Below are positions 10,483 through 31,280 of a stretch of 32,000 nucleotides of DNA, one piece after another. The notes beneath the pieces are model-generated. The model was not told where the DNA came from. It saw only the letters and a program-made list of their open reading frames with translations, and made no database searches. The translations under genes were made by a program, and so were the position numbers. This stretch comes from Candidatus Methanoperedens sp. GTDB taxonomy: Archaea; Halobacteriota; Methanosarcinia; Methanosarcinales; Methanoperedenaceae. The DNA lies in assembly GCA_041494705.1 (NCBI GenBank), contig JBGQBI010000001.1, positions 450,001 through 482,000 of the forward strand. Reading direction: 5' to 3'. Each line of letters opens with the position of its first letter. Within the stretch, counting starts at the first letter, position 1.

Positions 10483-13400
10483 TCATGAATATGTCTTGTC
10501 CGGATATGTATGGCAATAATTACAATCTATAGTCTTATTGTAACCATAAGTGGCTATTGCGTTGTTATACAATGCCGAATCATGGCAAACGGTGCAGTCG
10601 GTGATATTTAAAACGTTCGTTCCATTGTAATTATACGGTATACTTGTTATGTTATGCCTGTAGTCGCTTCTCTTATCAGCCGGAATTGGAATCTGCTGCA
10701 CCACAGCATGGCAGTCCTCGCATGCTTTTCTCGCGCCGGTATTATTGTGCCCTTTGGTATGGCAGTCCTCGCATGCCAATGAACCGTGCGGGCTGCTGTT
10801 GAACATGGTTGAATTGACATATTTATCAGGTTTGTTTACACTGCTGCCGTTCATGTAGTCGTAGTTGAAGTGGCAGCTTGTGCATAACCCTGTGCTTATA
10901 TTATGCACAAATTCTTTTATATTGTCAGTAGACTGTGATTTACTATGGCAGCCCTTGCATGTGGAATCGTTATAATCAGGTGTCAGGGAGTGGTTATAAT
11001 AGCCGCTCACATTGTAAGGCGAATAGGAGGAGGAGTTTGTAATCTCAGGAGGCACTGAAAGATTGGCGCCCGTAAAGGCCAGAGTCATGTTAATGTAGTT
11101 CTTTCCGTTGTTGGAATAGCCCAGATAGTGGCATCCTGCACACCAGTTGCCATTACTGGTAATAGATGAATTCATAATGTTGCTCCCGCTCCAGTTGGAA
11201 GGTTTCCCCAGGCCTGTCGCATTATGCCTTGCGTCGCCGTGGCAATAATCGCACATGCTCTGCTGGCTGGTATTTGTCCAATACCCCTGCTGCGTGCCGT
11301 TCCAGAAAGAACCATTCAACGGGTTATCGCCGTGCTGGACTGTGGAGACTTTTGGAGGCTTATTTGAAAGAATTAAATCCAATGTATTTTGCTGGTGGCA
11401 ATCGGTGCAATTTACAGCCGTCTGGTTCGCAGTAGTGTAGTTTCCATTGGGCTGGCTATTGGGCTGGAGATAGGTCATTGGATGGATATTTGTCTTATTT
11501 GGACCTGTATGGCATTCAGTGCAATTGACCGTATTGTTGTGCATTTCTTTATATGTCGTCACTGCTCCGGTATAATTTGTGGTTCCATTTGATGTATTCA
11601 GCCCATGACAACCCAGGCAATATGAGCTATTATACAGTGTGATGTTAATATCCGGTTTAATTAATTGAGCACTATGCAGCGATGCATTTGTACTATTGTG
11701 GCATTCGCTTACGCTGCACGACGGGCTGGAGGAATTATATCTCAGGCTGTGGTTGGATATGCTTCGATTCGCAACATCCTGGAATACACCGTTGAATTCA
11801 CCTGTGCTGTTGCTGTTATGGCAATAAATACAATAATCATAACTCCCTGCAGTCTTTCCAAAGTTTGACCTGTTAGCGCCGTAATGGTAGAAGCTCGTGT
11901 TTCCTCCATTGACCCCTATTCCGTCGCTTGCATACGAGCCGTAATCCGTATCATTATTGGGTATTCTCATCCCTGATATGTTCTCATTCTCATGACATCC
12001 TATACATGAAGCGAGATCACTTGTCTTATTATCCAGCGCCCTGATATTTGTCCCGTTCCTGTAATGATTGGATATAATCGTTGCATTGTATGCTCCTGCA
12101 TTGCTTCCATTCGCAAGATGGCAGTCCGTGCAGGTGTAGGGCGTGTCTCTCTTATCCGGGTGGGTGTTGTTAGCTACTACGTAGCCGCTTGAGTTGTGAC
12201 ATGCCCAGCAGCTTGCGTTTATGCCATAGCCCGAAGCGTTGTTGCTGTTTATGTTTGCATGCACGGATATGCTGAAATTCGCGCCGTCTATGTAATGCAG
12301 GCCGGTGAAGTTCTGGGGATTGGAGTTATTATGGCAGTCAAGGCAGCCGGGACCGCCGCCGAGTACCACTTCGTTTGAATGGAAATCTACCGGCATGCTC
12401 TGGTTTCTGGTATGACAGGTATAGCACGAATTGTTGCTTATTGCGTATCTGTTCCCGAACATGTTGCTGGCGTTTACCTGCATTGCATTGCCCCATCCAT
12501 TTCTTATTGTTTCAATGCTCTGGTTGTGGCAGAACAGGCAGTTGGTGGTGTTGGGCATGCGGTCTATGGGGACTGTCCAGTGAGGTGGATCGTACTTGCC
12601 AACTGGTACAGAAGCATCGTTATACTGTGCATAGTAACCTCCGAAATTAGACTTGTTGAAATAGGGGGCTGCGTGACACGTTCCTTCTCCTGTGACTGCG
12701 TTGTAACTATAGCAGGTGGTAGAGTATGTTGCAGTGCCGCCCTGCGAGGGTACGCTTACATTAGTGCCCGTTATGTTGGAGTAATTGATATGGGAATAAA
12801 CATAGGGCAATGTATCATTTATGTCGCTCCTCAATGAATAGAAAGTGGTCCGGTTCGGGCCGGTGAAGAGACTGGTGGTGTTGGGGAGGTGGCAGTTCTC
12901 GCACAGTTTGACGCTCTGGAGGTTCGTTGCGATCGTGCCGGAGTTTGCTGAACCGTGGCAGGCATAGCACGGCTCGGAATCGCTGGGAACTGAGTTTGAT
13001 TCGTTGAAGTCATCCTGTTCCCAGTCAAAACCACGATCGTACGTAAGGGATGGGACGTCAATACCGCCGTGGATTGAATATGAATAGAACCACGGCTGAG
13101 AGTGGAATGTGTCGTTTGCGTTCGTGGATTTATTATGGCAGTTGCCACAGTCCTGGCTTTTTGCGGGATGTCTTGTGAGGTTGGCGTACCATTCCGTTGC
13201 ATTTGCAGGGGATTTGTGGCACAGCGAGCAGTTGGTGCTGTTTTTGATAAGGCTGGTGTTGGTGGCGTAGTGGGATATATTGGAATAGATTGCATCTATA
13301 GCGTCACCACCACTTATATAAAAACCACTCGTATTAAAACCGCCCATGCTTTTTATGTGGCAGGCGGCGCAATCTACCGAAGAGTTCAAGTCTGATGTAA

Positions 13401-15027
13401 TTTTGTAACCCAAACCTGCTGTGACTTCAATGGTATAATTATACGGTATGTGGTTGTATATTTTCCTCGCACTTAGGTCATTAATCCTGTCTGCATCGGT
13501 GTAGGTGAGGTTGTAGGTCGCATTATGGCATGCAACGCAGCCGGTTATTATTATTGTTGTGTTAAACTCTGTGCCGTTGGTATGGCATGCCCAGCAGGCT
13601 TTGTTCACAGGATCTGATAAAAGATTTGTTTTGTTTGCAAGATGGTTTAGATTTTGATGAGTTGCATTCGAGGACGAGTTCATTTTAGAAACATCCACTT
13701 TAGCTATCGAGTTGTTTGTGGTATTCGACACATCATGACATTTAACACAATCAGAAATATCCCCTGTGAGGTGAACTATCCCACTCTTTTTCACAAGCGA
13801 TTCCTGTCCTGTTATCGCAAAAGGGGACAGCGAACCTGTGCCGGCGCTTAACGTGCTATTTGTAATGTCCCTGATGGTTTCAAGCATCTCCCATTGTGTA
13901 ACATTCCAGTGATAGACTACAAGCGTATTTTCATTTACATTGTTGAGTTCGGCTTTGCTGTAGTGTATAGTTACTTCTGCTGATGAAAATGATATATTCT
14001 CCGCGCTAATCTCCACAAATTTTACAACCTTTCCCGGAACCGGAACTGGCACGGGGTTTTTCTTCCCGAAATCATCAAGAATGACTTTTCCTTTCCCGTG
14101 GACTGAAGCATTTTCCAGCTTCAGGGCGGCATTTTTTGTGGGGATTGCATCAATTTTAAAGGTTTTTGGATTATCCGGTGCTGCGCTGGCTACGGGTAGA
14201 AAAAAATCCAGAATTGAATAAAATATCACTGCCGGCTCGGTGATAATCGGGAAAGCCAGCCCGATTAGACCTGAGTTGTTTACCTTACGATAAGATTTGA
14301 CCAGCGAATTGTTTTCAAATATCTCTACAGTTGAATTGACAAGAGAACCCGATGTATCTATGACATTGATGTCCCACTCCGGAGAAGGAGCCACAATCGC
14401 AAAGACTGACAAAGAGTTCACCGTCGTGCCCAGGATATTATTTACCGCATCGATTTTTGTTGGCAGTTCGTTCCATACCTGCATAGCGCCATCGTACTTG
14501 TAAATAGTAAGGTTATTCACATCCAGTCCGCTCACTTCCGCATCCGTGTATTTTATTGATATATCGGCGTTAGAAAAGGAAACGCCGCTGGAATTGACTT
14601 CAACGTACTTTACCGGCGTCCCGGGCGCGGATACATTTACGCTCCCGGGCTGGTTGATACCGTAATTTTCCAGTACTACCCTTCCTTTTGGCGAATCACC
14701 TGAAATCCGAAGATTGATTGATATGCCCTTGGTTGCAAAATCATCATAACTGATTATAGTGCCAGGGATTCCGTGCCAGCTTATAAGATTGACATCCGGT
14801 TTTGGAGGGCCGCTTGATACCCCATCTCCGCTTAAAGATATTGCGCCCGTTAACGGATTTCCTGCACTGTCTGTGAATGTTATCTCGCCGCTTGTTTTTT
14901 GCGCTTCGGTATGTGTAAGTATTGGAGGAAAATACAATAAAGCCGCAGCTATGCCTGATAAAACTACAAACACAAGTATTATGAGCCTGATATTAGAGAG
15001 GCCTGCCTTATCTCTTAAAACATCCAT
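10483..15027 (-). CDS. Giant multihaem c-type cytochrome (1514 aa) with N-terminal anchor and two S-layer-type (PGF-pre-PGF-like) beta domains
   Basis: N-terminal TM/signal IRLIILVFVVLSGIAAALLY. A non-haem region (aa ~45-410) contains two related ~100-aa domains. From aa 427 on I hand-counted 26 CxxCH, plus CSVSECH (C-x4-CH) and CYSYNAVTGEGTCH (C-x11-CH). Extremely Asn/Ser/Thr rich. Confidence 0.9.
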   Translation of the reverse strand: MDVLRDKAGLSNIRLIILVFVVLSGIAAALLYFPPILTHTEAQKTSGEITFTDSAGNPLTGAISLSGDGVSSGPPKPDVNLISWHGIPGTIISYDDFATKGISINLRISGDSPKGRVVLENYGINQPGSVNVSAPGTPVKYVEVNSSGVSFSNADISIKYTDAEVSGLDVNNLTIYKYDGAMQVWNELPTKIDAVNNILGTTVNSLSVFAIVAPSPEWDINVIDTSGSLVNSTVEIFENNSLVKSYRKVNNSGLIGLAFPIITEPAVIFYSILDFFLPVASAAPDNPKTFKIDAIPTKNAALKLENASVHGKGKVILDDFGKKNPVPVPVPGKVVKFVEISAENISFSSAEVTIHYSKAELNNVNENTLVVYHWNVTQWEMLETIRDITNSTLSAGTGSLSPFAITGQESLVKKSGIVHLTGDISDCVKCHDVSNTTNNSIAKVDVSKMNSSSNATHQNLNHLANKTNLLSDPVNKACWACHTNGTEFNTTIIITGCVACHNATYNLTYTDADRINDLSARKIYNHIPYNYTIEVTAGLGYKITSDLNSSVDCAACHIKSMGGFNTSGFYISGGDAIDAIYSNISHYATNTSLIKNSTNCSLCHKSPANATEWYANLTRHPAKSQDCGNCHNKSTNANDTFHSQPWFYSYSIHGGIDVPSLTYDRGFDWEQDDFNESNSVPSDSEPCYACHGSANSGTIATNLQSVKLCENCHLPNTTSLFTGPNRTTFYSLRSDINDTLPYVYSHINYSNITGTNVSVPSQGGTATYSTTCYSYNAVTGEGTCHAAPYFNKSNFGGYYAQYNDASVPVGKYDPPHWTVPIDRMPNTTNCLFCHNQSIETIRNGWGNAMQVNASNMFGNRYAISNNSCYTCHTRNQSMPVDFHSNEVVLGGGPGCLDCHNNSNPQNFTGLHYIDGANFSISVHANINSNNASGYGINASCWACHNSSGYVVANNTHPDKRDTPYTCTDCHLANGSNAGAYNATIISNHYRNGTNIRALDNKTSDLASCIGCHENENISGMRIPNNDTDYGSYASDGIGVNGGNTSFYHYGANRSNFGKTAGSYDYCIYCHNSNSTGEFNGVFQDVANRSISNHSLRYNSSSPSCSVSECHNSTNASLHSAQLIKPDINITLYNSSYCLGCHGLNTSNGTTNYTGAVTTYKEMHNNTVNCTECHTGPNKTNIHPMTYLQPNSQPNGNYTTANQTAVNCTDCHQQNTLDLILSNKPPKVSTVQHGDNPLNGSFWNGTQQGYWTNTSQQSMCDYCHGDARHNATGLGKPSNWSGSNIMNSSITSNGNWCAGCHYLGYSNNGKNYINMTLAFTGANLSVPPEITNSSSYSPYNVSGYYNHSLTPDYNDSTCKGCHSKSQSTDNIKEFVHNISTGLCTSCHFNYDYMNGSSVNKPDKYVNSTMFNSSPHGSLACEDCHTKGHNNTGARKACEDCHAVVQQIPIPADKRSDYRHNITSIPYNYNGTNVLNITDCTVCHDSALYNNAIATYGYNKTIDCNYCHTYPDKTYS
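13807..14691 (-). repeat. Two copies of a ~100-aa beta-sandwich domain (archaeal S-layer / PGF-pre-PGF-like) within the 1514-aa cytochrome
   Basis: Copy 1 (14389-14691) reads GRVVLENYG...PVKYVEVNSSGVSFSNADISIKYTDAEVSGLDVNNLTIYKYDG..WNELPT...LSVFAIVAP. Copy 2 (13807-14097) reads GKVILDDFG...VVKFVEISAENISFSSAEVTIHYSKAELNNVNENTLVVYHWN..WEMLET...LSPFAITG. Confidence 0.6.
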
Positions 15028-15191: not shown

Positions 15192-16028
15192 TCATGACGT
15201 TAAATAATCCGTATGACGCCCGCTATATACATACCCGACACCGAATGCGGAAAATGCAAGTATGAAGATGCTGAAAATGATTAGCCATGCAATCCTTTTT
15301 CCGGTCCATCCCGCATTCATCCGCAGGTGCAGGCAAATCCCGTATGTGAACCATGAAATCAAAGACCATGTCTCGATGGGGTCCCAGCCCCAGTACCTCC
15401 CCCATGTCTGGTTTGCCCATATAGCGCCTGCTGCTATCATGATAGTAAGGGCGAAAAATCCCAATGCCACGAAACGATACATAAGATCGTCCATTGTTCG
15501 CAAGTCGGGCAGCCTGTCGTAAAATGAATCCTGGACTCCGGTATTTAAGTGCTTCTCTTTCAATATATAAAGAGCAGCAATGCCTGCCGCTACCATTACT
15601 GACCCGAAGCCAAGACTTGCAAAACCCACATGGACTATCAGCCAGTAACTCTGGAGAGAAGCCGGTATCATCTGGATATCCCTCGAATAAGTCGAACCTA
15701 TAGCCATCATCAAAAAGGATGCGGGCAGCACTATAAATCCTGCAATCTTTATCTTTTCATATTTTTGCTGCGCGAGCAGGAATATAACTACGGAAAACCA
15801 TGCATATTTTGATAAAACCTCGTACATACTGATGTAGGGACCGTGCCCTGTTTCTATCCACCGCAGGGCTATGGAAACGCTGTGGAACAACAAGCCGATT
15901 AGGGCGCTGCTGACTGCAAGATTTATTCTTTCTTCTTTCTTGAAAACAAGGCAGTATAAGTAAACAGCCGAACTGAGCGCATAAAGCATTGCAGCGGCCA
16001 CGTACATAATCCATTCAGTCTGTCCCAT
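15192..16028 (-). CDS. ccsA: Cytochrome c biogenesis System II haem-handling protein CcsA/ResC
   Basis: 278-aa polytopic membrane protein with the tryptophan-rich WWD-type motif WGRYWGWDPIETWSLISW followed by a conserved His (CLHLR). Confidence 0.9.
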   Translation of the reverse strand: MGQTEWIMYVAAAMLYALSSAVYLYCLVFKKEERINLAVSSALIGLLFHSVSIALRWIETGHGPYISMYEVLSKYAWFSVVIFLLAQQKYEKIKIAGFIVLPASFLMMAIGSTYSRDIQMIPASLQSYWLIVHVGFASLGFGSVMVAAGIAALYILKEKHLNTGVQDSFYDRLPDLRTMDDLMYRFVALGFFALTIMIAAGAIWANQTWGRYWGWDPIETWSLISWFTYGICLHLRMNAGWTGKRIAWLIIFSIFILAFSAFGVGYVYSGRHTDYLTS

Positions 16029-17415
16029 GTAACCTCTTAATCTTATCTACAATACCTGAATATTCTTCTTCATATAAAGACCTGAACTTATCCGCCCGCC
16101 CTCCTATATAAATTTCCACTGCACCGGACTTTTCATCCCTCTTAACCTCAACCCATACCCTTTTAGGGATTATAAAGAAAGATACCATCAGGCTGAGTAT
16201 CATCAATCCGGCTCCCGCATACACAAGAGGCGTTCCGTCGTCCTTCACCACGTAGAAATTACTCCAGTATTTTATATCGTAAAAACCAAGATATTTATCA
16301 GATATTTTCACGGTCTCGTTGAGCCGCAAAGTCCCATCGTAAATCTGCTTTCCCCTGTCAAATACCCTCAAAAACATGATAGGTGTTTTTTCGGCTTCGG
16401 ATTCCATGAGTTTTCCTGTCAAAGGCGCAGTCATGTAAACCATCAATCCCCCTTCAAGCCCCGTATTCCCCATTTCAAATGATGCGACATACCTCCCGCT
16501 GTTATCGAGGTCTGATGCGGTTATATACGAGCCGGAATATACCGTCCCGTCAGGATTTTTCAACAACAGCAGCGGCGCAAGACCATAGACGTTTCCAAGA
16601 AACGTGTATCCATTATAAGTCATCATGTGATTTGAATATACGATATCAGTTTTCACTTTCTGACCATTCTCTATTATGGCAAGCTCACCTGCTGCTCCGC
16701 GAGGCGTATGTGTTTCATCCTTATAATCAGGGAAGAATCTCTCAAGAGATATACCGAATTTCCGATGTTGTTCATAAAAAAAAGGACCTTCATTGATAAA
16801 CATATAGTTCCCGTGCTCTTCTTCCATGGTCTGTCCCTCTATTAATCGCATATCCCCTTCCATCCTGCCCGTACTGCCGTAAACCGCAGCTATTATGATG
16901 AAAAGTATGCTGATGTGAAATAGCGATGTGCCCATTATCCCTAGCCTGTTTTTTTCAGCAAGAATGCAATTCTCTTCCTGCCATACCTTATATCCTGCGG
17001 ACTTAAGTAAAGAACCAGTTTCAGAAATAACACTGTTGCTATCTTTTTTTGTTTTAATTACCGAGCTGTTCTCAAGTCCGGTAATGTATGCTTTTTTTTG
17101 GAATTGTGGAGCATTGAGCCTTCGAAAAGCGTTGTTCAACATCGTTCTTGTGCAAAAAAGAGTATTGATGACAAGGAGCGCCGCTATACTTAAAAATATA
17201 AATGATGAAAAAAGATGGGTAAAACCGATTTTCTCAAAGATATCAGCCTGCTCCGGATGGGCAGACTTCCATTTATCATATACATCAGGCTTGAGCTGCG
17301 ATTGCTGGGGTACATGGGTCCCGATTATCGAAAATACGATAATAAGAGTAATAAGAACTATCGCAAGTTTTCTGGAGCTAAAAAAAGTAGCGATTTTGCC
17401 CATACTAAAATCCAT
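16015..17415 (-). CDS. resB: Cytochrome c biogenesis System II protein ResB/CcsB (Ccs1)
   Basis: 466 aa with a ResB-type N-terminus FFSSRKLAIVLITLIIVFSIIGTHVPQQ, a large soluble loop and a C-terminal TM YAGAGLMILSLMVSFFIIPKRVWVEV. It overlaps ccsA by 14 nt. Confidence 0.85.
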   Translation of the reverse strand: MDFSMGKIATFFSSRKLAIVLITLIIVFSIIGTHVPQQSQLKPDVYDKWKSAHPEQADIFEKIGFTHLFSSFIFLSIAALLVINTLFCTRTMLNNAFRRLNAPQFQKKAYITGLENSSVIKTKKDSNSVISETGSLLKSAGYKVWQEENCILAEKNRLGIMGTSLFHISILFIIIAAVYGSTGRMEGDMRLIEGQTMEEEHGNYMFINEGPFFYEQHRKFGISLERFFPDYKDETHTPRGAAGELAIIENGQKVKTDIVYSNHMMTYNGYTFLGNVYGLAPLLLLKNPDGTVYSGSYITASDLDNSGRYVASFEMGNTGLEGGLMVYMTAPLTGKLMESEAEKTPIMFLRVFDRGKQIYDGTLRLNETVKISDKYLGFYDIKYWSNFYVVKDDGTPLVYAGAGLMILSLMVSFFIIPKRVWVEVKRDEKSGAVEIYIGGRADKFRSLYEEEYSGIVDKIKRLHGTD

Positions 17416-17542: not shown

Positions 17543-18010
17543 ATGACGCCTCTAAATAAAATAATCGTCCTGATTGCCCTGGGTTCAGTTCTCGTTTTAT
17601 CGGCTGCCTGGTGGGATTCGCAATCAGGAAACAATTCAGCTTTTATCAAACTTGGCGGTGTTTCATTTCATACATCAATAGAACCGGGAATCACAGAGGC
17701 AAAGAACTTAAGCAAACCTGTTTTCCTGTATTTCAGGTCAGAAACGTGTTACTGGTGCATAAGATTTGAAGATGAAGCCCTGTCTGATAAAAGGGTCATC
17801 GATAAACTCAATAAAAATTTTGTTCTTATATCGATAGATACATTCAAACAAAAAAATGTTTCTCTCAATCTCAATGTACGAAATACCCCGTACATGATTT
17901 TCTTTACAAAAGACGGCGAAGAGATATCAAGAATCCCGGGCTACCTGCAAACTGACGATTTCCTGGTAAAATTAGATTCCGTATCTGAAAACCTCAACCG
18001 GAGCTCTTAG
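17543..18010 (+). CDS. Membrane-anchored thioredoxin-fold protein with CYWC active site (ResA/CcsX-like candidate)
   Basis: 155 aa with an N-terminal TM IIVLIALGSVLVLSAAWW, then PVFLYFRSETCYWCIRFEDE (CxxC in thioredoxin context). Transcribed divergently from resB. Confidence 0.7.
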   Translation: MTPLNKIIVLIALGSVLVLSAAWWDSQSGNNSAFIKLGGVSFHTSIEPGITEAKNLSKPVFLYFRSETCYWCIRFEDEALSDKRVIDKLNKNFVLISIDTFKQKNVSLNLNVRNTPYMIFFTKDGEEISRIPGYLQTDDFLVKLDSVSENLNRSS

Positions 18011-19454
18011 TTGCAGTTATATATGTTTCAATAAACTTCTTAACCTGAGGTGGCATCTCCCCTTTCATCTGGTTTGAGAGGTAAGAATCGTTGATGAGCA
18101 GTCGCGTGACCTCTATCATGTAGTTTTTCTTAAAATCGCTCATCTCCTCAATCTTTTCAAGCTTTCCCATGTAAAAATCCCGGAACGCCTTTAAAAGATG
18201 TTTATTTAGCTCCTCCCGCGTCATGTTGACGGGCCTGACTATCGGTTCGATAAGATTGTATTTTGAATAATCAAATTCCTCTATATACGGCGCAAGTTCA
18301 GGATAAATATCAGAATAAGGCCATGGGGCAATTGCAAGGAAAAACGCAAGGTCAGGATTATAATACTGCGCCAGCTTACATGCCGCCTCTATGGATTCGG
18401 GCGTTTCTTCCGGCATCCCAAGGACAAAAGATGTCTCCGAAATAATCCCGGTATTGTTTATCAGGTCAATCGCTTCCCTTGACTGCCCTATCCTGATATT
18501 TTTCTGATAGCGGTCAAGTGTATCCTGGCTTGCGGATTCCGCTCCCACGTAGATATGAAGGATTCCCGCCTTTTTGTATTTATCAATTATATCCTTATCA
18601 CGCAGGATGTCGTCCACCCTTGTTTCCATCAGGAGTTCAAGGTCAAGTTCTTTCTCGATGAGCAGATCAAGGATTTTCTCCCACCGTTTGCGGTCATACG
18701 TGGGGGTTTCATCAGCTATCATGGCAACATCCACGCCATATGTGCTGTTTAAGTATTCAAGCTCGGATACGAAGTTTTCAGGGCTTCTCCCTCTCCATTT
18801 CTCCCTCCAGAAAAGACGCTGCGAACAGAAGGTGCATTTCTGGGTGCAGCCCCTTGAAGAACTCACGACTGCAAGTGTGGAATTTTTCTTTGTCTTGAAT
18901 GTATAATCCTTCCACTCTATAAGGTTCCATGCCGCAGGCATTGTGTCCAGATTTGAGATGAGAGGCCGTTCTTTCGTGCAGATGATTTTCCCATCCCGCG
19001 CATAAGCAATTCCCGGGGTATCCGGGTTTTTTTCTGCAAAAACCTGGCTTAAAAGTTCTGATGTAGTGATTTCACCTTCGCCGCGTATGATATAATCTAC
19101 TATGCTCCTCTCTTTTTGCAGGATTTCCTCCCAGCAGAAAGTGGGATGGATGCCGCCAAGGAGCGTAATTATCCCCGGATTTACCTCTTTAGCTACCTTG
19201 AGAACCGCAATAGCATCGTAAAGGCTTGATGTATATGCCGCCGTGCCCACAACATCGGGAGTGATTTCTTTTATGCGCCTTTTGATGTCATCAAAAGTAT
19301 GGTATTTTGACATCGCATCGTATATGCTGACTTCATACCCGGATTTTTGCAGGCTTCCGGCAACATAGACCATGCCAAGTGGCATCCATGTGCCTGCGGA
19401 TTCGAGTACGCCGCAGTGGTAAGGCGGTGTTATTAACAGGACTTTTTTAGACAT
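17994..19454 (-). CDS. B12-binding domain radical SAM protein (class B)
   Basis: The ORF track starts at 19517. I prefer the ATG at 19454 (MSKKVLLITPPYH...), which removes the overlap with the upstream gene. The N-terminal region looks like a Rossmann-type cobalamin domain. Radical SAM motif SSSRGCTQKCTFCS. Confidence 0.85.
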   Translation of the reverse strand: MSKKVLLITPPYHCGVLESAGTWMPLGMVYVAGSLQKSGYEVSIYDAMSKYHTFDDIKRRIKEITPDVVGTAAYTSSLYDAIAVLKVAKEVNPGIITLLGGIHPTFCWEEILQKERSIVDYIIRGEGEITTSELLSQVFAEKNPDTPGIAYARDGKIICTKERPLISNLDTMPAAWNLIEWKDYTFKTKKNSTLAVVSSSRGCTQKCTFCSQRLFWREKWRGRSPENFVSELEYLNSTYGVDVAMIADETPTYDRKRWEKILDLLIEKELDLELLMETRVDDILRDKDIIDKYKKAGILHIYVGAESASQDTLDRYQKNIRIGQSREAIDLINNTGIISETSFVLGMPEETPESIEAACKLAQYYNPDLAFFLAIAPWPYSDIYPELAPYIEEFDYSKYNLIEPIVRPVNMTREELNKHLLKAFRDFYMGKLEKIEEMSDFKKNYMIEVTRLLINDSYLSNQMKGEMPPQVKKFIETYITATKSSG

Positions 19455-19482: not shown

Positions 19483-22437
19483 TTATATTTTGTGTTTCTT
19501 CCAGAACCATAGTGCAACTATTCCTATTACCAACGAAAATGCAGCTATGTAGGTTAAATATGGTTTTGTTACTATTTTAACAATCTCTTTGCCATGAAAA
19601 CTTTTTAATTCTCCTTCAACATGGCATCCCCAGCAATCCTTATTTCCAATATTACTATGTTGCGAATCCGAAGGCAGGGCTCTGGGATTCCCCCATGCTT
19701 TTCTTATAGTTTCATTTTCCTGGATATGGCAGAAAACGCAATTTTTTGAATCCGGCATGTAATCAACAGGAGAATTCCAGTGGTAAGGGTCGCCCTTGTT
19801 AAATAATGTGCCTGTATAATTTGTATTGAAGGAAAAATAACCGCCTGCTTTTGCTTTATTCCCGAACGTCACGCCATGGCACGAACCCTGGCCGGTTGCT
19901 GCATCAAATCCGAAGCAGGAAGACCTTGTATTACCTAAAGAAGACTGGTCTGTCACATTGATGGGAGAATTATTGTAATGGGAATATACCACCGGGATAT
20001 ATTTTGTAATATCGGGCCGCACGTTAGCAAGGGGACTTAGCTCCGGGTTTACTTTTACATGGCAGTCTTCACATACATTCAATTTCGGCGATACATGCTC
20101 CGTCATTTTTACGTGGCACACCGGGCAGCTTTCATTCAGCCTGTCAGCTCCTTTTTCATTGGCATTATCCCCTTCCCAGTCAAAACTATCATGCATGAAT
20201 CCGGGTGAAAATGGCTTTTCCGGATGTTTACCGTTTGAAAAAGTAGTATTGTAATGACAGTTTTCACAATTGTTGCCAGTCGTTCCATGCCTTATTTTAT
20301 GGCATGAGGTACAATCTTCGGCCGCTGAATAAGAAGTAGAATTCACACCTGGCAATTTGTCTGCGGCTGATAGTTTCGGGGTTGTATCGCTATTATTATA
20401 TTTGCCGCCGGAATTATCCATTGTTGTCGGGAGAGACATGGTTATCCTGACCACAGCGGTTTTCATTGTTTCTGCGTTACCCGCATTATCCAAACTGAAA
20501 TATTTAATGGTATGTCCGCCTTCTTCATTAAAAGTAAGCTGTATATATGGTAAATAAGATACCTGCCCGACTCCATCCACTATGTAGTTTATTGCTTCAA
20601 CACCTGAGATATTATCAGAAGCTGTAATATTGAGAGTTACATTTGCAGTGTGCCACGTACTGTCTGAGTTATCGACCGTCTGTGGAGGGATATTATCAAT
20701 CCTGATAGTGGCAGTATGAGGTTGTTCAGCGTTCCCTGCATTATCCACACTATAATACCTGATAGTATGATTGCCTTCCCCGCTTATGGAAACGGTTGTG
20801 CCTTTCAGAGAGTATGATGTAGGAATTGGGCCATCAACGGTGTAATAAGTTTCCATTATACCTGAGCCTGCATCGCTGGCAGTAAGCATGACCGCAACGC
20901 TGCTATTATACCATTGACCATCAGCATTGTCTGACGTAAGAGGTGGGGTTTTGTCGATTTTCACCTGGCTCGGTGCTGTCTTTATCCCTTCGACATTGCC
21001 TGCTTTATCCACGCTGAAATATTTGATAGTATAAATCCCTTCATTTGAAATACTAAATGTTGTTCCTTCTGTGGAGTTTACTGTTGGTTCTGTTCCATCA
21101 ATAGTATAGTACGTGGCTGCCACCCCGCTTTCATTATCTTTCGCTGTCAATGTAACTGTAACGCTGCTATTATGCCATTGCCCGTCCACATCATCCGTGG
21201 TTGCGGGAGGTATGGTGTCCGCTGGTTTGTTATAGTAAGTATAGGCATAGATGTTCCCATTGGAATTCCCCAATATAATCTCCTTGTTGCCGTCCCCTTC
21301 CAGGTCCGCTATAGTCGCCGATGTAAACATATCATTAGCGACCCTTGTATTTTCAAGGACATTTCCCTGGTTATCCCATATATACAGGTTCCCGTATGCG
21401 TCGCCGGCTGCAATTTCCATCTTCCCGTCGCCGTTTATGTCTCCAAGCGCGAGATTACTGTCAACCCTTCCGATAGAAGAAAATTCTTTCAGGATGCCAT
21501 TCCTTATCAGATATATTTTTTTCTCATCATTTGAGGCGATTGCCGCACTAATCACGCCTGTGCCGTCTATATCGCCCGTGCCAGGAGATGCTAGGTTACT
21601 TTTTATGTTAAATTTATAAAGCTGATTACCGCTATTATCGAAAATAGATACTCCCGATGACGAAGTCACAATAATTTCATTCCTACCGCTCCCCTCAAAG
21701 TCACCGAACCTTGCGCTTCTCGCATCCCCTCCGAGATCCCTGCTCCAGAGAATTGTTCCCATAATACTATTTACTTTTATTACCCAGATTTTCCCATCTA
21801 TTGGATTTGCAGAATTGATATCCTGGGTTAAAATAACAGCCTCATCGATTCCATCCCCGTCGATATCGCCAACCGGGATTGGCGCCCTGTAATTCACAGC
21901 CTTTCCAAGCTCAAGATACCAGAGTTTATTTCCAGAGCTGTCGAATGCATACACACCTGTAGCCTGGGTTATTGATCCCAAAGACGACCCCGGAGCCGCC
22001 CCGGTAAGAATTATTCCTTCTTTTGTAATTGACGGGGAGGAAATAAGCAGATATTTTCCCGGCGTTATATTCGCAATATTATTACCCGCAGTATCCCAGA
22101 TATAAAAAGTGGCATCCGAGTAACCGGGATTACCATAAGAAATTATTTCAAGCCTGCCGCTGATATTGGCTACCAGAGGAGTTCTTGCTTCATCTGCCAG
22201 ATTTATTCCGCCGGTATTCTCCCAGTCAAGGACGCCCATATAATTGAACACTTTAATCATCCTGTTATCGGGCGCCGCTATTATCTCAGGTTTCCCGTCT
22301 CCGTCTATATCCTGTACAACTAAAAGGGATTTAATTGGGCTACCAGTATTGACAGGGAAACCTGCGTGTTGTTCTATCTTGGCAGATACTGTTGTTATCA
22401 TTAGAAACACTGTTAAAAATAAAACTAGTTTATTCAT
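19483..22437 (-). CDS. FG-GAP beta-propeller / triple Ig-like repeat / hexahaem cytochrome c fusion protein with C-terminal TM anchor
   Basis: The preferred start at 22437 (MNKLVLFLTVFLMITTVSA) is preceded by GGAGGGAGGAG and lies 1 nt after the upstream TAA. Six or more FG-GAP-like Ca-binding loops are present (DIDGDGKPEII, GDIDGDGIDEAVI, GDFEGSGRNEIIV, GDIDGTGV, GDINGDGKMEIAAG, ADLEGDGNKEIILG). Then come three ~88-aa repeats, then CTSCH, CENCH, CPVCH, CEDCH, CVFCH, CWGCH plus CFGFDAATGQGSCH. The C-terminus is IAAFSLVIGIVALWFWKKHKI. Confidence 0.9.
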   Translation of the reverse strand: MNKLVLFLTVFLMITTVSAKIEQHAGFPVNTGSPIKSLLVVQDIDGDGKPEIIAAPDNRMIKVFNYMGVLDWENTGGINLADEARTPLVANISGRLEIISYGNPGYSDATFYIWDTAGNNIANITPGKYLLISSPSITKEGIILTGAAPGSSLGSITQATGVYAFDSSGNKLWYLELGKAVNYRAPIPVGDIDGDGIDEAVILTQDINSANPIDGKIWVIKVNSIMGTILWSRDLGGDARSARFGDFEGSGRNEIIVTSSSGVSIFDNSGNQLYKFNIKSNLASPGTGDIDGTGVISAAIASNDEKKIYLIRNGILKEFSSIGRVDSNLALGDINGDGKMEIAAGDAYGNLYIWDNQGNVLENTRVANDMFTSATIADLEGDGNKEIILGNSNGNIYAYTYYNKPADTIPPATTDDVDGQWHNSSVTVTLTAKDNESGVAATYYTIDGTEPTVNSTEGTTFSISNEGIYTIKYFSVDKAGNVEGIKTAPSQVKIDKTPPLTSDNADGQWYNSSVAVMLTASDAGSGIMETYYTVDGPIPTSYSLKGTTVSISGEGNHTIRYYSVDNAGNAEQPHTATIRIDNIPPQTVDNSDSTWHTANVTLNITASDNISGVEAINYIVDGVGQVSYLPYIQLTFNEEGGHTIKYFSLDNAGNAETMKTAVVRITMSLPTTMDNSGGKYNNSDTTPKLSAADKLPGVNSTSYSAAEDCTSCHKIRHGTTGNNCENCHYNTTFSNGKHPEKPFSPGFMHDSFDWEGDNANEKGADRLNESCPVCHVKMTEHVSPKLNVCEDCHVKVNPELSPLANVRPDITKYIPVVYSHYNNSPINVTDQSSLGNTRSSCFGFDAATGQGSCHGVTFGNKAKAGGYFSFNTNYTGTLFNKGDPYHWNSPVDYMPDSKNCVFCHIQENETIRKAWGNPRALPSDSQHSNIGNKDCWGCHVEGELKSFHGKEIVKIVTKPYLTYIAAFSLVIGIVALWFWKKHKI
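20422..21219 (-). repeat. Three tandem ~88-aa (~264-nt) Ig-like domain repeats, plus a truncated fourth copy immediately downstream
   Basis: Each unit reads PP.T.D..DG.W.N..V.V.LTA.D..SG...TYYT.DG......G.T..IS.EG.HTI.Y.S.DNAGN.E. The copies are diverged at nucleotide level. A partial fourth unit (PTTMDNSGGKYNNSDTTPKLSAADKLPGV) is fused to the haem domain. Confidence 0.75.
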
Positions 22438-22438
22438 T

Positions 22439-25400
22439 TTACCTGTTTCTCCTCCCTCCAGTGCTTGGTTGAACATGGCAGCCCGTTGAGAAGCATCCGC
22501 TACTGCCTACATACATGCCTATATTTTTATCATGAAGTGTCATATTAACCTGCGGATTGGAATTATGGCATGAAGACTGGCAGGAAATCCCTGTGCTGCC
22601 CATTATATTATGACTAGATGGTAAGATTCTGGCATTTCCATAATCCTTCCCCACTGCACCTGCGTTATGGCATTTATTGCATCCAAAATTTGTTCCCGTT
22701 GTGGCTCTCGTATCGGGCAGTATGCCTGTTACTGCTGATGGCATACTTTCACCGAGTGTCCTGCTAACCACGTAATGCGATACCGAGGCGTTCTTTAATT
22801 TTTCCGCGGCATAGCCGCCATAATTAATGTTCTGGTTTGCTACTAAACTATTATTATGACATGAAACGCACGTCCTGTTAGAGTCCACGTTATCGTAAAC
22901 CACCGTGCCTGAAAATACCGAACCCGGATAATGCCGGTACACTAAAGTGGCATTGAAATTATTATTGACATGACAATACTCGCATGGTTTTGGATACTGA
23001 TAATTAACCGGATGCTTTTCCGGCTGGGTGCCATTGCCATGACATGCCCAGCAGGCTTTGTTTATCGGGTCCAATACTGAGGTGTTGGTTGCATTACTGT
23101 TAAGATTCGCATGCACGCCAAGCTTCATCGCACTAAAGTTTATCTTCCTGTCGTCCGGCGCCCCGTTTCCTGATACATCGTGACATGAAACACAATCAGG
23201 TCCGCTCGCGCTGGGTTTAAGATTGTGGCTAAAGTCAAGCGAAGTGGCGCCTGTTTTGAGCGCGCTGCCGTGGCAATTTTTACATTTAATATCATCATAT
23301 CCCGAGGAAAGCGCACCTGAATGGTTGTAGAAAGCTGTGCCATCCCTGGAAGTAAGCGGGACAAGTCCGCCCATGTTTAACACTTCAGGAGGCACCGGAT
23401 TGAGAAGGTTCCCCGAGTAATTGGGCGCATTCTTGTAATGGCAGTTGGCACACCAGTAACTTCCGTTTAAGCTCTGGTTGTTTGTATTGTTCCCCATGAT
23501 CTTTGTGATATTGCCCAGAGCTGATGCATTATGGAGGGTAATACCATGGCAGTAAACACATGCGCTCTGCGTGTCGCTGTTTGTCCAGTAACCCTGCTGC
23601 GTGCCATTCCACAGTGAACCGTTATAAGGATCGGCGCTGTGATTCATGGGCGCGGGGATTTTCGGGGCAGTGCTGAAGTTGCCAGGACCGCTCTGGTGGC
23701 ATGTGGTACAGTTTACTGCATTTGTCCTTGATGTGCTGAAGTTGGAGCCGTCCTGCTGGAGGTACCGCACCGGATGGATGCTCCTGCTATCGTTGAGATG
23801 GCAGTCTGTACAATTTACGGCATTATTGTGTGGTTGTTTAAAACCAGTTACTGCTCCTGTATAATTTGTGCCGCCGGTGCCGTTGTTGCCGTGACAGCTC
23901 AAGCATAAACGGTTATTATTCACGGGCGACGCCGGCTTGTAAAGTGTACTGTTGTGAATTCTGCCAGCCTGGGTTGCATGGCAGTCCGTACAACCCGGAT
24001 TGGAGGAGGGATAGCCGGATGAGTGGTTTGCTATCGTCTTGTTTGCATTATCGATGAACGGAAATACTGTTGTCTGGTTGTTGTGGCATTTATTACAGTA
24101 ATCGTTTGTTCCCTGTGCAGGGTAATCAGTGCGTTTCTTGCCATAATGACTTGTGCTATTGCTTCCGCCGTTTTCACCGCCGTAAACGCCTGCTGCGCCG
24201 TCAGGGTCAGGGTTTGTGCCCAGCATCATCTCAGTCCTATTATGGCAATCATAGCACGTGGTCACCGCCTCCGTTCTTATACTGGTGCCGTTCCAGTAGT
24301 GCTGGGTTACGTATGGTATTATTGCAATAAGATCTCCATACATATTATGGCATACTGCACAGCTTATACCTATGTGCCTCGTAACATGGCAATCCACACA
24401 TCTGTAGGGTGTCTTGTAATTGGATGGATGACTACTTCCCGGTTCGTTGCCGTTGCCGTGGCATGCCCAGCATTTCTTGTTCTCTGCGGGCAGGGTTGTT
24501 GTGGTTCTGCTGTTCAGGTCACTGTGGATGGCGTTTACATCGTTCATCGCACTGATATTTACAAGTTTTCCTGCACCGGCTGAGCCTCCGATGTTGTGGC
24601 AGCCTGTACAGTTGGCTCCTCCTGCCTGTCCTATACCCACATTATGGCTAAAGTTGAGAGACGTTGCCCCTGCATTGAGGTTATTATCATGGCAGTTCTT
24701 GCACGTAGCATCATCATAGCTTGTTGAGATTGCACTTGAATGGTTGTAGAATGAAGTTCCATCTTTGGAAATTACAGGGACAAGCCCGCTCTGGTTTAAC
24801 ACCTCAGGCGGCTGCTGAGTTAACAGGTTTCCTCCATAATCGGGTGCAGTCTTATAATGGCAGTTTGCACACCATCTACTTGTGGTAAGGTCCTGATTTA
24901 AACTATTCGTCCCTTTGACGTTGCTTACGCTACCCAGTGCTGAGATGCTGTGAAGAGTCGATAGACCGTGGCAGTAATAACATGCGCTCTTCTGGCTTGT
25001 ATTATCCCAGTAAGCGGATTGCAAGCCATTCCAGAGGACGCCTGCATATGGGTCTGTGCTGTGGTTCAAAGGTACTGGAATCTGTGGCGGGTTCCTGCCT
25101 GTGTAGTTGCCTGCCTTGGGCTGCGCTTTCAGAGCAGCGAAGAACGAAGCGTTCTGGTGGCAATTGGTGCAGTTGCCTCTTGCTGGATTTGGATTATTAT
25201 GATTCAAATCTACATACGTGGCGTTCTGTGCAAACACCTGTATGTCATGCACATCGTCGCTGTGGCATAGTGTGCAGTTCACGCCGCCCGATGTGGTGTT
25301 GCTTGAGTTGTGCTCGGTATTGCTTGTGTGGCAGGTTTTACATTGAGAATCTTCTGTATTACTATTCCTTATAAATCTCTGGGTTTCATCAGGTTTAGTG

Positions 25401-27532
25401 ATATTATGCATCGGACCGTGGCAGATGATGCAGGGGACTGTTGAGTTGGGTGTATGGAAGGTTCCATTAAAGTCAGTGCCATTGTTTTCAGAATATTCGC
25501 TATGTGCAATTGCTTTATTGGAATTATTAAGAGTGGATTTGCCTGAGATATCCGACCTGTTTGCAGGAGTGTGGCAGACTGTTGTATTGAAACATGAACC
25601 TATGACAGCATTTGTACTATGGACTGAACTGGCTTGATGGCAGTTTGGGTCACTGCAAGTGAGATTTCTGTGAACATCTTTGGTATTAATCCCATGGTTT
25701 GCACCACCGGAAGTAAGGGCACCTGGATTGCCATCAAATGATTGGTGACAGTTTGTACAGTTCAGAGTTGCACTTGTGTGTGTACCAGTTTGAGATATTG
25801 TCTCCCTTCCGCCCATATAAGGCGAATTTTTGGCCATCGTCCCGGCAGGATTCGAACCTGTATGGCCACTGTTACATCCTGACATCCCGCATCCCCACCA
25901 GTTGTAGATAAAGCTTGTATTATCGTTAAGATTGCCGTTCGACGCTTTGACCGTCCAGTTCCCATAATAGTTCCTTGCATCCATGTCAAAGCTGAAGTTG
26001 GCAAGACCATATGCATTGGTTGTAGCATTTATTCTTGCCGGAGTATATTCTGTCCCGTTGGGCATGTATAAATTGAATGTTATGACCCTTCCGCTCAAAG
26101 GTGAACCTTTATCATCTATGAAAAAGGCTGTTGCATTGATATTGGTATTTATACCCGTCCAGGAATTAGCGGTGTGAGTTGTTGTCGGTTTAAAAAATCC
26201 TGTACCATTTGAACTGGCCGTTGTCCAATCGTCCAGTATCACATAGCGGTTGGTGGCAACCAGTATTTTCCCCCCAGCCGAAGGCGGCGTGGGCGTAAGC
26301 AAGATATTAACATTGCTCATCGCAGCGCCGCTTACTGTTCCTGTGGTTGAGTTGTCGTTATAACCCGGCTTACTGGCTGTTATGATATAAGTGCCGTTGC
26401 CTACCGTAAAATTGTAGTAGCCCGTGCCGTCCGTACTGGTGGAAAGGCTCGTGTTCGTTGTAACTGCGGCGCCCGTTATCGCCTGTCCGTTTGAGGCATT
26501 GGTAACGTAGCCTGATAATTGATAAGTCGGCACAGGTGTTAGCGAGATGTTTGCAGTGGTATTATGAGCGCCGTTAATTGCTACGTTAATCGAATTTACA
26601 CCATAACCTGTGAGGCTTGCATTAATAACATATGTCCCATTGGATAAGCCCGTGAAATTATAGAAGCCGGTAGCATTTGTTGTCGTGGTCAGGCTTGTGT
26701 TTGTCTGAACTGTGGCACCGCTTAGAGGAAGACCGCTGGATTTGTTGGTAACATAGCCTGAAATATTGTAGAGTGTGGTATCGTTTATAGTGATATTCGA
26801 TATATAATTATTGAAATACAAACTCACTGTCCCGGCAGTACCCGTAGTCGTGTTTATTTGAACCATCAGCCTGTGCCCTTTCGGAACAATATATGTAGTA
26901 TAATTGATTCGAGAGCTGTAGTTTCCCTGGGTGGTTGCGGTTGGAGTTAGATTTACCTTGTTGCCAATACGGGTTTTTGCGCCGTTTGCAGGATCATATT
27001 CGAATAGTGATACGTTTAGCCGGTTATTTGTAGTACTCGTAGCCTTCCAGCTTATATTAAAAGTGGTATTTCCAGTGATTAAGGTATCATTGGTATAATT
27101 AAAAGGGAGATAAAACCTGAAAAGCTCGTATTCGGTAGTGGTGGAAGTGGTAGTAAAACTTATATTTGCTACTGTGCCCATGGTTCCGTTTTTCAATAAA
27201 TTCTTGTAAGGTCTTTGTGCCAGCGGGACTATAGTGTTTGTTGCGGAATAATTTGTCATTCCATCCGCCCCCACTGACACATTGCCTGCGGTGTTGTTGT
27301 TTTCCAGATAATAAATTTTCACATCCGCCGCTGCCGGCTGAACCATAGCAAACATAACGCCGGTTATAACTAGAACCAGAATCACAGCTAGTCTTGCCCG
27401 TTTTATCCGCTTTTTACAGAAACCTGCATTCATTTTAGAAGCCATACCACCATTTTCAATAGCAACTGCTATGCCATCAATTCGTTTTCTATTCTGAAGC
27501 ATCATGAATTGATGTCCTATCCAATTCATCAA
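22439..27532 (-). CDS. Giant multihaem c-type cytochrome (up to 1697 aa) with N-terminal beta-sandwich and CarboxypepD_reg-like domains
   Basis: The signal-like segment KKRIKRARLAVILVLVITGVMFAMVQPAAA-DV suggests the true start is Met30 (27445) or Met34 (27433, preceded by GGTGGT). The non-haem region runs to aa ~590. Beyond it I hand-counted 26 CxxCH plus CSDPNCH, CFNTTVCH, CQSSCH and CFSTGCH. Confidence 0.9.
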   Translation of the reverse strand: MMNWIGHQFMMLQNRKRIDGIAVAIENGGMASKMNAGFCKKRIKRARLAVILVLVITGVMFAMVQPAAADVKIYYLENNNTAGNVSVGADGMTNYSATNTIVPLAQRPYKNLLKNGTMGTVANISFTTTSTTTEYELFRFYLPFNYTNDTLITGNTTFNISWKATSTTNNRLNVSLFEYDPANGAKTRIGNKVNLTPTATTQGNYSSRINYTTYIVPKGHRLMVQINTTTGTAGTVSLYFNNYISNITINDTTLYNISGYVTNKSSGLPLSGATVQTNTSLTTTTNATGFYNFTGLSNGTYVINASLTGYGVNSINVAINGAHNTTANISLTPVPTYQLSGYVTNASNGQAITGAAVTTNTSLSTSTDGTGYYNFTVGNGTYIITASKPGYNDNSTTGTVSGAAMSNVNILLTPTPPSAGGKILVATNRYVILDDWTTASSNGTGFFKPTTTHTANSWTGINTNINATAFFIDDKGSPLSGRVITFNLYMPNGTEYTPARINATTNAYGLANFSFDMDARNYYGNWTVKASNGNLNDNTSFIYNWWGCGMSGCNSGHTGSNPAGTMAKNSPYMGGRETISQTGTHTSATLNCTNCHQSFDGNPGALTSGGANHGINTKDVHRNLTCSDPNCHQASSVHSTNAVIGSCFNTTVCHTPANRSDISGKSTLNNSNKAIAHSEYSENNGTDFNGTFHTPNSTVPCIICHGPMHNITKPDETQRFIRNSNTEDSQCKTCHTSNTEHNSSNTTSGGVNCTLCHSDDVHDIQVFAQNATYVDLNHNNPNPARGNCTNCHQNASFFAALKAQPKAGNYTGRNPPQIPVPLNHSTDPYAGVLWNGLQSAYWDNTSQKSACYYCHGLSTLHSISALGSVSNVKGTNSLNQDLTTSRWCANCHYKTAPDYGGNLLTQQPPEVLNQSGLVPVISKDGTSFYNHSSAISTSYDDATCKNCHDNNLNAGATSLNFSHNVGIGQAGGANCTGCHNIGGSAGAGKLVNISAMNDVNAIHSDLNSRTTTTLPAENKKCWACHGNGNEPGSSHPSNYKTPYRCVDCHVTRHIGISCAVCHNMYGDLIAIIPYVTQHYWNGTSIRTEAVTTCYDCHNRTEMMLGTNPDPDGAAGVYGGENGGSNSTSHYGKKRTDYPAQGTNDYCNKCHNNQTTVFPFIDNANKTIANHSSGYPSSNPGCTDCHATQAGRIHNSTLYKPASPVNNNRLCLSCHGNNGTGGTNYTGAVTGFKQPHNNAVNCTDCHLNDSRSIHPVRYLQQDGSNFSTSRTNAVNCTTCHQSGPGNFSTAPKIPAPMNHSADPYNGSLWNGTQQGYWTNSDTQSACVYCHGITLHNASALGNITKIMGNNTNNQSLNGSYWCANCHYKNAPNYSGNLLNPVPPEVLNMGGLVPLTSRDGTAFYNHSGALSSGYDDIKCKNCHGSALKTGATSLDFSHNLKPSASGPDCVSCHDVSGNGAPDDRKINFSAMKLGVHANLNSNATNTSVLDPINKACWACHGNGTQPEKHPVNYQYPKPCEYCHVNNNFNATLVYRHYPGSVFSGTVVYDNVDSNRTCVSCHNNSLVANQNINYGGYAAEKLKNASVSHYVVSRTLGESMPSAVTGILPDTRATTGTNFGCNKCHNAGAVGKDYGNARILPSSHNIMGSTGISCQSSCHNSNPQVNMTLHDKNIGMYVGSSGCFSTGCHVQPSTGGRRNR
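22967..23668 (-). repeat. Copy 2 of the ~235-aa six-haem module
   Basis: APKIPAPMNHSADPYNGSLWNGTQQGYWTNSDTQSACVYCH...WCANCHYK...PPEVLNMGGLVPL...CKNCH...CVSCH...CWACHGNG...CEYCHV. A partial third copy lies in the 1514-aa gene at about 10942-11361 (NGSFWNGTQQGYWTNTSQQSMCDYCH...WCAGCHY...CKGCH). Confidence 0.8.
24383..25093 (-). repeat. Copy 1 of a ~235-aa six-haem module duplicated inside the 1697-aa cytochrome
   Basis: NPPQIPVPLNHSTDPYAGVLWNGLQSAYWDNTSQKSACYYCH...WCANCHYK...PPEVLNQSGLVPV...CKNCH...CTGCH...CWACHGNG...CVDCHV is colinear with copy 2. Confidence 0.8.
26288..26770 (-). repeat. Two tandem ~80-aa carboxypeptidase-regulatory-like (CarboxypepD_reg / Ig-like) domains
   Basis: Copy 1 reads ISGYVTNKSSGLPLSGATVQTNTSLTTTTNATGFYNFTGLSNGTYVINASLTGYG...ISLTPVP. 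Copy 2 reads LSGYVTNASNGQAITGAAVTTNTSLSTSTDGTGYYNFTVGNGTYIITASKPGYN...ILLTPTP. Confidence 0.7.
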
Positions 27533-31154: not shown

Positions 31155-31280
31155 TACTAATACTATTCTTTAAATGCTATTGAAGGTTTTGGATAGACGG
31201 GTTATTTCCGGAAGTCCCTGGAAAATGAAAAGAAACGGTCTCTGAATTTAGAAAAGGATAAGTGGAAGGAGCGAGCATAT

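Follow-up and report, generated by a model that had tools for sequence, protein, structure and literature searches.

In the 32,000-nucleotide (nt) stretch of Candidatus Methanoperedens DNA analysed here (the window; contig JBGQBI010000001.1, positions 450,001 to 482,000), the gene on the minus strand at 22437..19483 is almost certainly a recent, lineage-specific fusion of two neighbouring genes in an extracellular electron transfer locus. Its 984-amino acid (aa) product joins an FG-GAP β-propeller and immunoglobulin (Ig)-like repeats to a heptahaem c-type cytochrome domain with a C-terminal transmembrane (TM) anchor (Table 1), and its best matches all come from Candidatus Methanoperedens (ANME-2d); the G+C content is ~44%. 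The reading frame runs from an ATG at 22437 to a stop codon at 19485-19483, and begins 1 nt beyond the TAA (22441-22439) that ends the upstream gene for a 1697-aa multihaem cytochrome (MHC). The initial annotation had given the correct coordinates and the 1-nt spacing, and had left the minus strand unmentioned.

The two halves of the gene can be traced to two separate parents. Residues 1-703 correspond to aa 1-706 of the unfused propeller-Ig protein P0002 (81%), and residues 704-983 to aa 26-306 of a free cytochrome (85%), with the haem half being 85-96% identical to the same segment of the separate cytochromes in L005, L010 and P0121 (L and P numbers are our handles for loci and proteins). 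In a blastn comparison with the unfused locus L012, the high-scoring segment pairs abut at window nt 20329 and join locus positions 9598 and 10696, indicating a single in-frame deletion of 1,098 bp as the origin of the fusion. This deletion removed the last 319 codons and the stop codon of the propeller gene, a 63-nt spacer, and the initial 25 codons of the cytochrome gene, which encode its signal peptide. At the codon level the junction reads STSY/SAAEDC, compared with STYY-KVD in the propeller gene and AAS-AAEDC in the cytochrome, and the junction-spanning peptide is …GVNSTSYSAAEDC…. The right breakpoint lies at the signal peptide cleavage region of the cytochrome (…AAS/AAEDC) and the left breakpoint falls inside Ig repeat 4, which accounts for the truncated fourth repeat of the fused protein. 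Microhomology at the junction was considered and rejected: a shared ACTTATT heptamer lies near the cytochrome start codon, and the blastn breakpoints overlap by only ~1 nt. The mechanism can be specified no further than illegitimate recombination or deletion.

The unfused arrangement is present in the syntenic loci L005/L012, L010, L011 and L031. In L005/L012, the gene order is an MHC (1314 aa), the propeller-Ig protein P0002 (1025 aa, with six OmpL47 repeats), a 306-aa cytochrome, a radical-SAM enzyme, thioredoxin, ResB, CcsA and another MHC, and in L010 and L011 the full gene order is kept, with the propeller-Ig and cytochrome genes adjacent but separate. The two genes are also separate in L031 (GCA_027460565.1, JAPZAQ010000155.1, 8001-13441), which lacks the radical-SAM/thioredoxin/ResB/CcsA block; there the anchor cytochrome is directly followed by a 1487-aa MHC, a second structural variant at the same boundary. 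Compared across these loci, gene order shows an ancestral arrangement that would have comprised a giant MHC, a secreted haem-free propeller/OmpL47 protein, a ~306-aa anchored heptahaem cytochrome, a B12 radical-SAM enzyme, thioredoxin, ResB, CcsA and another giant MHC. A further candidate for an intermediate or a second fusion, P0160 (281 aa, called without a signal peptide), proved at the DNA level to be an ordinary unfused gene with a mis-called start.

The same junction was found in L001 (GCA_041643025.1), L009 (JBGPUU01), P0158, P0162, P0165 and P0169/P0170. The six fused sequences, which come from NCBI, JGI and Logan assemblies and include one on a 2.07-Mb contig, form one cluster at ~90% identity, and the frame is intact in all six. 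Between the window and L001, at a synonymous divergence (dS) of ~0.18, the ratio of nonsynonymous to synonymous divergence (dN/dS) takes values of 0.20 (propeller), 0.28 (Ig repeats) and 0.21 (haem domain), while the stump of repeat 4 reaches 0.45, and 0.55-0.88 against the unfused gene. Because the ratio of the stump is raised relative to the ~0.2 of both halves, the stump is evidently decaying into a linker while both halves are still under constraint after the fusion. In a whole-protein search, ~35 close relatives of the propeller-Ig part were recovered, and the haem part was covered by P0001 only (91% identity). When 1.84 billion representative proteins were searched exhaustively with a profile, the heptahaem module turned up in 76 clusters only, as a free protein (~300 aa) or as part of a larger MHC, and no FG-GAP domain occurs in the 10 longer multi-domain matches that were inspected. 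The fused architecture is thus rare, previously undescribed and not an ancient design, in keeping with the earlier description of it as unusual.

The features from which that description was built (a signal peptide, DxDGxG loops, three repeats with a truncated fourth, six CxxCH and one Cx11CH, a TM helix and a KKHKI tail) were all recovered by domain and motif searches and in the structural model. In the propeller, Pfam profiles for FG-GAP_3 (PF13517, 60.4 bits, cut-off 26.9, three stretches) and FG-GAP (PF01839, 38.2 bits, cut-off 22.1) score above cut-off, and six loops of the form D-x-[DNE]-G-x-G, at aa 43, 191, 246, 289, 333 and 378, are putative calcium sites. The Ig-like repeats (89, 86 and 86 aa, then the truncated 36 aa) match the OmpL47-type barrel domain NF047446 in three stretches (173 bits, cut-off 40), and the full-length OmpL47 equivalog model scores below its cut-off (91.9 bits versus 250). 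The CxxCH motifs lie at aa 709, 724, 771, 789, 900 and 935, and the Cx11CH motif at aa 841; no haem motif occurs in the first 700 aa of the fused protein, and Pfam Cytochrome_C7 falls below its cut-off (21.3 bits versus 24.8). Across 36 homologues, each of the seven motifs shows little or no variation. The Cx11CH motif (aa 841-854, nt ~19876-19917) is itself invariant in the 36 members of the heptahaem module, and is also found in a paralogous copy within the 1514-aa MHC of the same locus (aa 772); it is presumably a seventh, oddly spaced haem site.

A full-length AlphaFold model, built from an alignment of 68 sequences, assigns high local confidence (pLDDT) to the propeller (>90), the three Ig domains (80-95) and the TM helix (aa 961-983), and low confidence to aa 667-708 (~27) and the haem domain (40-60). 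The propeller therefore folds confidently in the model, as had been proposed for checking. It contains 31 strands, with a loop periodicity of ~48 aa over 385 aa, and superposes best on designed eight-bladed propellers, with TM-scores normalised to the target of 0.84 (6tjg) and 0.79 (8prj). The eight-blade fit agrees with the loop periodicity and the propeller probably has eight blades, rather than the seven of an integrin-α-type propeller. The fused product is predicted to be a type I membrane protein, with the topology and domain order that the initial annotation described; in the model the haem domain would be membrane-proximal, and the propeller would be set apart from it by the three cofactor-free Ig domains and the disordered remnant. 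A sortase-like cleavage of the C-terminal helix would have altered this topology, and no archaeosortase-type signal was detected: archaeosortase sorting-signal hidden Markov models (NCBIfam/TIGRFAM) gave no match to the last 53 aa at E-values up to 10, and these residues contain no PGF or PEF motif. Neither Pfam nor NCBIfam matched an S-layer domain in the fused protein. The fused protein contains 18 N-x-S/T sequons, compared with 93-96 in each of the two giant MHCs of the locus (22439-27532 and 10483-15027), which suggests a very different glycosylation load.

An alternative open reading frame (ORF) of 997 aa starts at the ATG at 22476, and the gene has been called in this way in public data (P0158, P0165). 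This start is unlikely to be the true one because homologues begin at an MNK, MRK or MKK signal peptide. The signal peptide of the fused protein is, by alignment, inherited from the propeller-Ig gene.

The first parent belongs to a family of propeller-Ig proteins encoded directly 3' of giant MHC genes. This position was found in all 12 neighbourhoods read (the window, L001, L009, L010, L011, two pairs in L005, L006, L007, L028, L029 and L030), and in each the propeller-Ig gene starts within a few nt of the stop codon of a giant ORF with 25-62 CxxCH motifs. The arrangement holds in otherwise unrelated genomic surroundings, and the tight coupling noted initially for the window is therefore real and conserved in relatives. 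The unfused homologues contain no CxxCH motif, apart from one with a single motif, and neither a cluster of haem motifs nor a hydrophobic C-terminus occurs in the top 34. The unfused relatives (P0002-P0034) carry 4-6 repeats and a variable C-terminal module (of unknown type, FIMAH, CarboxypepD_reg, or PKD with dockerin), and have no TM helix. Among close relatives, identity to the window is 85-96% for the flanking genes and the haem domain (88-96% for the flanking mqn-like, radical-SAM, ResB and CcsA genes, compared with L009, L010, L011 and L012), 45-88% for the upstream MHC and 71-91% for the propeller-Ig part. The MHC and propeller pair is thus hypervariable, which suggests an exchangeable surface cassette between conserved flanks, and the fusion junction sits at the 3' boundary of this cassette. 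In the literature searched, no paper connects FG-GAP to Methanoperedens or a propeller protein to an MHC of this genus, and the matches to 'propeller' concern the operon of a sulfate-reducing bacterial partner; the MHC–propeller pair is not described in Ouboter 2024 or Chadwick 2022. As a separate observation, the propeller paralogs P0027, P0033 (L030, 3725-6229) and P0034, whose genes also lie 3' of giant MHC genes, have PKD domains and a type I dockerin at the C-terminus in place of the OmpL47 repeats, which hints at a cohesin-dockerin-style assembly of the extracellular cytochrome apparatus.

The second parent belongs to a family of free anchor cytochromes. A search with the haem part recovered ~35 clusters of stand-alone proteins of ~300 aa, each with a signal peptide, the seven motifs, a TM helix and a basic tail that is rich in K and R (e.g. 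WKKQR). Members of this family (P0121-P0153) are annotated merely as 'hypothetical' or 'Cytochrome c7 c', and the weakest member found, P0156 (42% identity), is from a Methanosarcinaceae metagenome-assembled genome. Wherever the 3' flank was read, with the exception of L031, the anchor cytochrome gene is immediately followed by a B12 radical-SAM gene (L002 7087-8544, L005 14093-15553, L010 11515-13038, L026 10985-12469), whether or not a propeller gene is present upstream, and thioredoxin, ResB and CcsA usually come next. The radical-SAM enzyme may modify the cytochrome or its haem. The same heptahaem module is also found in another MHC, P0195 (1059 aa, from the search of representatives), where two Laminin_G_3 (ConA-like lectin) domains precede the haems; this protein is an independent case of a binding domain fused to the heptahaem module.

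The reading that we favour, with a probability of roughly 0.55, is that the haem half acts as a relay at the membrane surface, that the propeller-Ig half acts as the partner of the anchorless 1697-aa MHC, and that the fusion tethers the two. The propeller signal peptide would export the whole chain, and the TM helix of the cytochrome would stop transfer and leave the basic tail inside, while the adjacent System II genes could serve to load the seven haems close to the membrane. The three Ig domains and the floppy linker would hold the propeller ~10-25 nm off the membrane. The haem domain would keep the job of the free anchor cytochrome, relaying electrons at the membrane surface to giant secreted MHCs, and the propeller-Ig arm would go on serving the giant MHC encoded upstream, to which it is translationally coupled, as a dedicated partner that docks or positions this MHC at the cell surface. 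The anchorless 1697-aa MHC would in this way be tethered, via its partner, to the cytochrome that feeds it, and the fusion would replace an attachment formerly provided by the lost C-terminal part of the propeller protein; the propeller itself would carry no electrons.

Several points weigh against this proposal. The haem domain is poorly modelled, both in the full-length protein and alone, where an alignment of 36 sequences gave a pLDDT of 47.5 and a pTM of 0.27, and a search of its sequence against the chains of the PDB gave no match at E-values up to 10. The fused protein is predicted from sequence, as is its haem loading, and binding between propeller-Ig protein and MHC is suggested by gene order and coupling only. 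The divergence of MHC and propeller is only loosely correlated across loci. In addition, the fusion is young, with ~9-11% protein divergence among the copies, and the purifying selection on it could stem largely from the two original functions and not from any benefit of linkage.

The propeller-Ig arm could instead be a general surface adhesin or matrix binder unrelated to the MHC, with the fusion merely anchoring the arm and the haem domain acting independently. Paralogs ending in surface or scaffold modules (FIMAH, CarboxypepD_reg, PKD with dockerin) are consistent with this, as is the combination of a propeller with Ig or PKD domains, a classic surface-layer architecture in Methanosarcinales, with 1l0q among the structural matches. 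We consider this unlikely, since it leaves unexplained the position of 12 of 12 family members 3' of, and coupled to, a giant MHC in unrelated neighbourhoods. It is improbable, in our estimate, that the fusion is a tolerated accident, neutral or mildly harmful, with one half dead (probably the propeller arm, which lacks its 319 C-terminal residues) and destined for loss in time. Its confinement to one shallow clade, the hypervariability of the MHC–propeller cassette, which implies frequent rearrangement (45-88% identity versus 88-96% in the flanks), and the decaying stump would all fit such an accident; against it stand the intact frames and the low dN/dS of the propeller and Ig repeats between fused copies, which imply continued constraint.

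Distinctly improbable is the reading put forward in the initial annotation, in which the propeller is a head that binds mineral, matrix or partner cell and is electrically joined to the haems, making the fused protein itself a terminal contact. FG-GAP propellers with calcium loops are typical ligand or adhesion modules, the propeller is distal to the membrane in the model, and other MHCs with the same haem module are fused to lectin-like domains, as in P0195. However, ~260 aa of Ig domains and the disordered remnant, without Cys-His motifs, intervene between the propeller and the haems, so that no electron path is visible, and the description of the propeller as wired to haems is unsupported because no redox cofactor motif lies between them. 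The orthologous propeller-Ig proteins are haem-free, and the haem domain, whose ortholog is a short anchored cytochrome, forms the end nearest the membrane. Finally, an assembly or gene-calling artefact (a chimeric contig or collapsed repeat) is highly improbable: although the junction lies within OmpL47 tandem repeats, which short-read assembly can collapse, the partner on the right is non-repetitive, and the junction recurs in the independent assemblies noted above with divergent sequences (89-93%).

The fused protein can be compared with known systems. Free heptahaem anchor cytochromes share with the fused protein the six CxxCH and one Cx11CH motifs, the TM helix, the basic tail and the position 5' of the radical-SAM gene. 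By contrast, the fused protein has lost the signal peptide of the cytochrome and carries 703 aa of propeller-Ig sequence in its place, and is not a ~300-aa single-domain protein. The haem-free propeller-Ig proteins share its signal peptide, propeller and repeat type and are likewise coupled in translation to a giant MHC upstream, but have neither a TM helix nor haem motifs. In anaerobic methanotrophic archaea (ANME), the large MHCs of types A, B and C join haem-bearing regions to extensive extracellular domains that lack haem (Chadwick et al. 2022, PMC9012536; McGlynn et al. 2015). They contain dozens of haems and S-layer, peptidase-M6-like or pectin-lyase-like domains, and those of types A and B also have a TM helix at the C-terminus. 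The fused protein shares the C-terminal TM helix with types A and B, but has seven haems, an FG-GAP propeller, no S-layer match and a very recent origin.

In bacteria, genes for six-bladed propellers are part of the core of the giant-MHC operons of SEEP-SRB1 and Desulfuromonadales (Skennerton et al. 2017, PMC5539420), and for the NHL-repeat proteins UetH/I and Gmet_0556 the suggested roles are stabilising cytochrome complexes or mediating adhesion (bioRxiv 10.1101/2022.05.06.490989). Protein-protein interaction is a further role proposed for the propellers of these bacterial operons. As in Methanoperedens, a secreted propeller is conserved next to the cytochromes in these operons, which have 16 to 26 haems, but the bacterial propellers, which we liken by description, are of the six- or seven-bladed NHL type, lack an Ig stalk and are not fused to a cytochrome. 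The heptahaem cytochrome MmcA of Methanosarcina acetivorans bears a signal peptide, is located at the membrane surface and takes part in intra- and extracellular electron transfer (PMC9084895, PMC10153276). Compared by description only, MmcA differs in being Rnf-associated, pseudo-periplasmic and matured by the archaeal Ccm system, whereas the window locus encodes ResB/CcsA.

The fusion of two adjacent genes in one lineage suggests that the propeller-Ig protein and the heptahaem anchor cytochrome interact in unfused species, in electron export, and this is a prediction that a natural fusion makes. A translationally coupled propeller-Ig partner lies behind every giant cytochrome gene examined, pointing to an apparently universal and undescribed partnership. 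Genomes of anaerobic methane-oxidising archaea have revealed many giant cytochromes, and we know of no model for how the anchorless ones of 1,300-3,500 aa are held at the cell surface or fed from the membrane. A bolder extension, which is possible but doubtful, takes the fusion as a 'Rosetta stone' and holds that the eight-bladed FG-GAP/Ig proteins are the obligatory docking subunit for every Methanoperedens giant MHC, linking it to an anchor heptahaem cytochrome. If so, these proteins would be the physical connection, so far missing, that joins the membrane to the extracellular conduit in methane-driven electron export by archaea, and the MHC–propeller pair would be a hypervariable, exchangeable cassette that plugs into a conserved set of anchor cytochrome, radical-SAM and System II genes. 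The gene also offers a clean case of a new multidomain redox protein arising by a single deletion, with breakpoints at nucleotide level and both halves under selection.

Table 1. Features of the fused gene and of its locus in the window, with the evidence for each (the slash marks the predicted end of the signal peptide).
Feature	Position (nt)	Strand	Evidence
Signal peptide, aa 1-21, MNKLVLFLTVFLMITTVSA/K	22375..22437	-	Read from sequence; matches N-terminus of unfused ortholog P0002; model helix aa 2-12
FG-GAP β-propeller, aa 22-406	21220..22374	-	Pfam FG-GAP_3 and FG-GAP above cut-off; pLDDT >90
Three OmpL47-type Ig-like β-barrel repeats, aa 407-495, 496-581, 582-667; predicted cofactor-free stalk	20437..21219	-	NF047446 and CHB_HEX_C_1 matches, repeat alignment; pLDDT 80-95
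36-aa stump of fourth OmpL47 repeat, aa 668-703; predicted disordered linker ending at deletion junction nt 20329/20328	20329..20436	-	Alignment to first 36 aa of P0002 repeat 4; pLDDT ~27
Heptahaem c-type cytochrome domain, aa 704-955	19573..20328	-	85-96% identity to separate cytochromes; ortholog of free-standing ~306-aa anchor cytochrome minus signal peptide
C-terminal TM anchor, aa 958-979, and basic cytoplasmic tail KKHKI, aa 980-984	19486..19566	-	AlphaFold helix aa 961-983
Upstream 1697-aa giant MHC, 26 CxxCH, signal peptide, no TM anchor	22439..27532	-	Stop codon 1 nt before the ATG of the fused gene
B12-binding radical SAM gene	17994..19451	-	Pfam; synteny in L002, L005, L010, L011, L026
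ResB-like and CcsA-like (System II) cytochrome c maturation genes	15192..17415	-	PF05140 188 bits, PF01578 140 bits
Paralogous heptahaem-module copy including Cx11CH, inside 1514-aa cytochrome, aa 588-888	12364..13266	-	BLASTP 32% identity, E 1e-38, seven motifs in register

The minus-strand cluster of the window runs from the 1697-aa MHC through the fused gene, the B12 radical-SAM gene, a thioredoxin gene (on the opposite strand), ResB, CcsA and the 1514-aa MHC to two small cytochromes. The ResB and CcsA genes lie ~2-3 kb downstream of the fused gene, and an export signal and a maturation system are thus both encoded. Work on archaeal cytochrome c maturation has centred on a variant System I (Ccm) (PMC9084895, PMC4429474); here, a System II ResB/CcsA pair sits among the MHC genes of an archaeon. 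The 1514-aa MHC (10483-15027, minus strand) has 26 CxxCH motifs and contains a PGF-pre-PGF domain (TIGR04213, 33.5 bits, above cut-off) at aa 293-407, with no PGF-CTERM signal at its C-terminus. The cluster is flanked by housekeeping genes (Elp3-like, polyprenyl synthase, NIF3, FtsJ), and further flanking genes were assigned from their translations as putative diphthamide-synthase and futalosine-pathway genes. At the far end of the window, a 220-aa low-complexity, Ser/Arg-rich ORF (31202-31864, minus strand) runs antisense to a 223-aa ORF (31281-31952, plus strand) whose translation reads as a HypB-like GTPase, and the 220-aa ORF is probably spurious.

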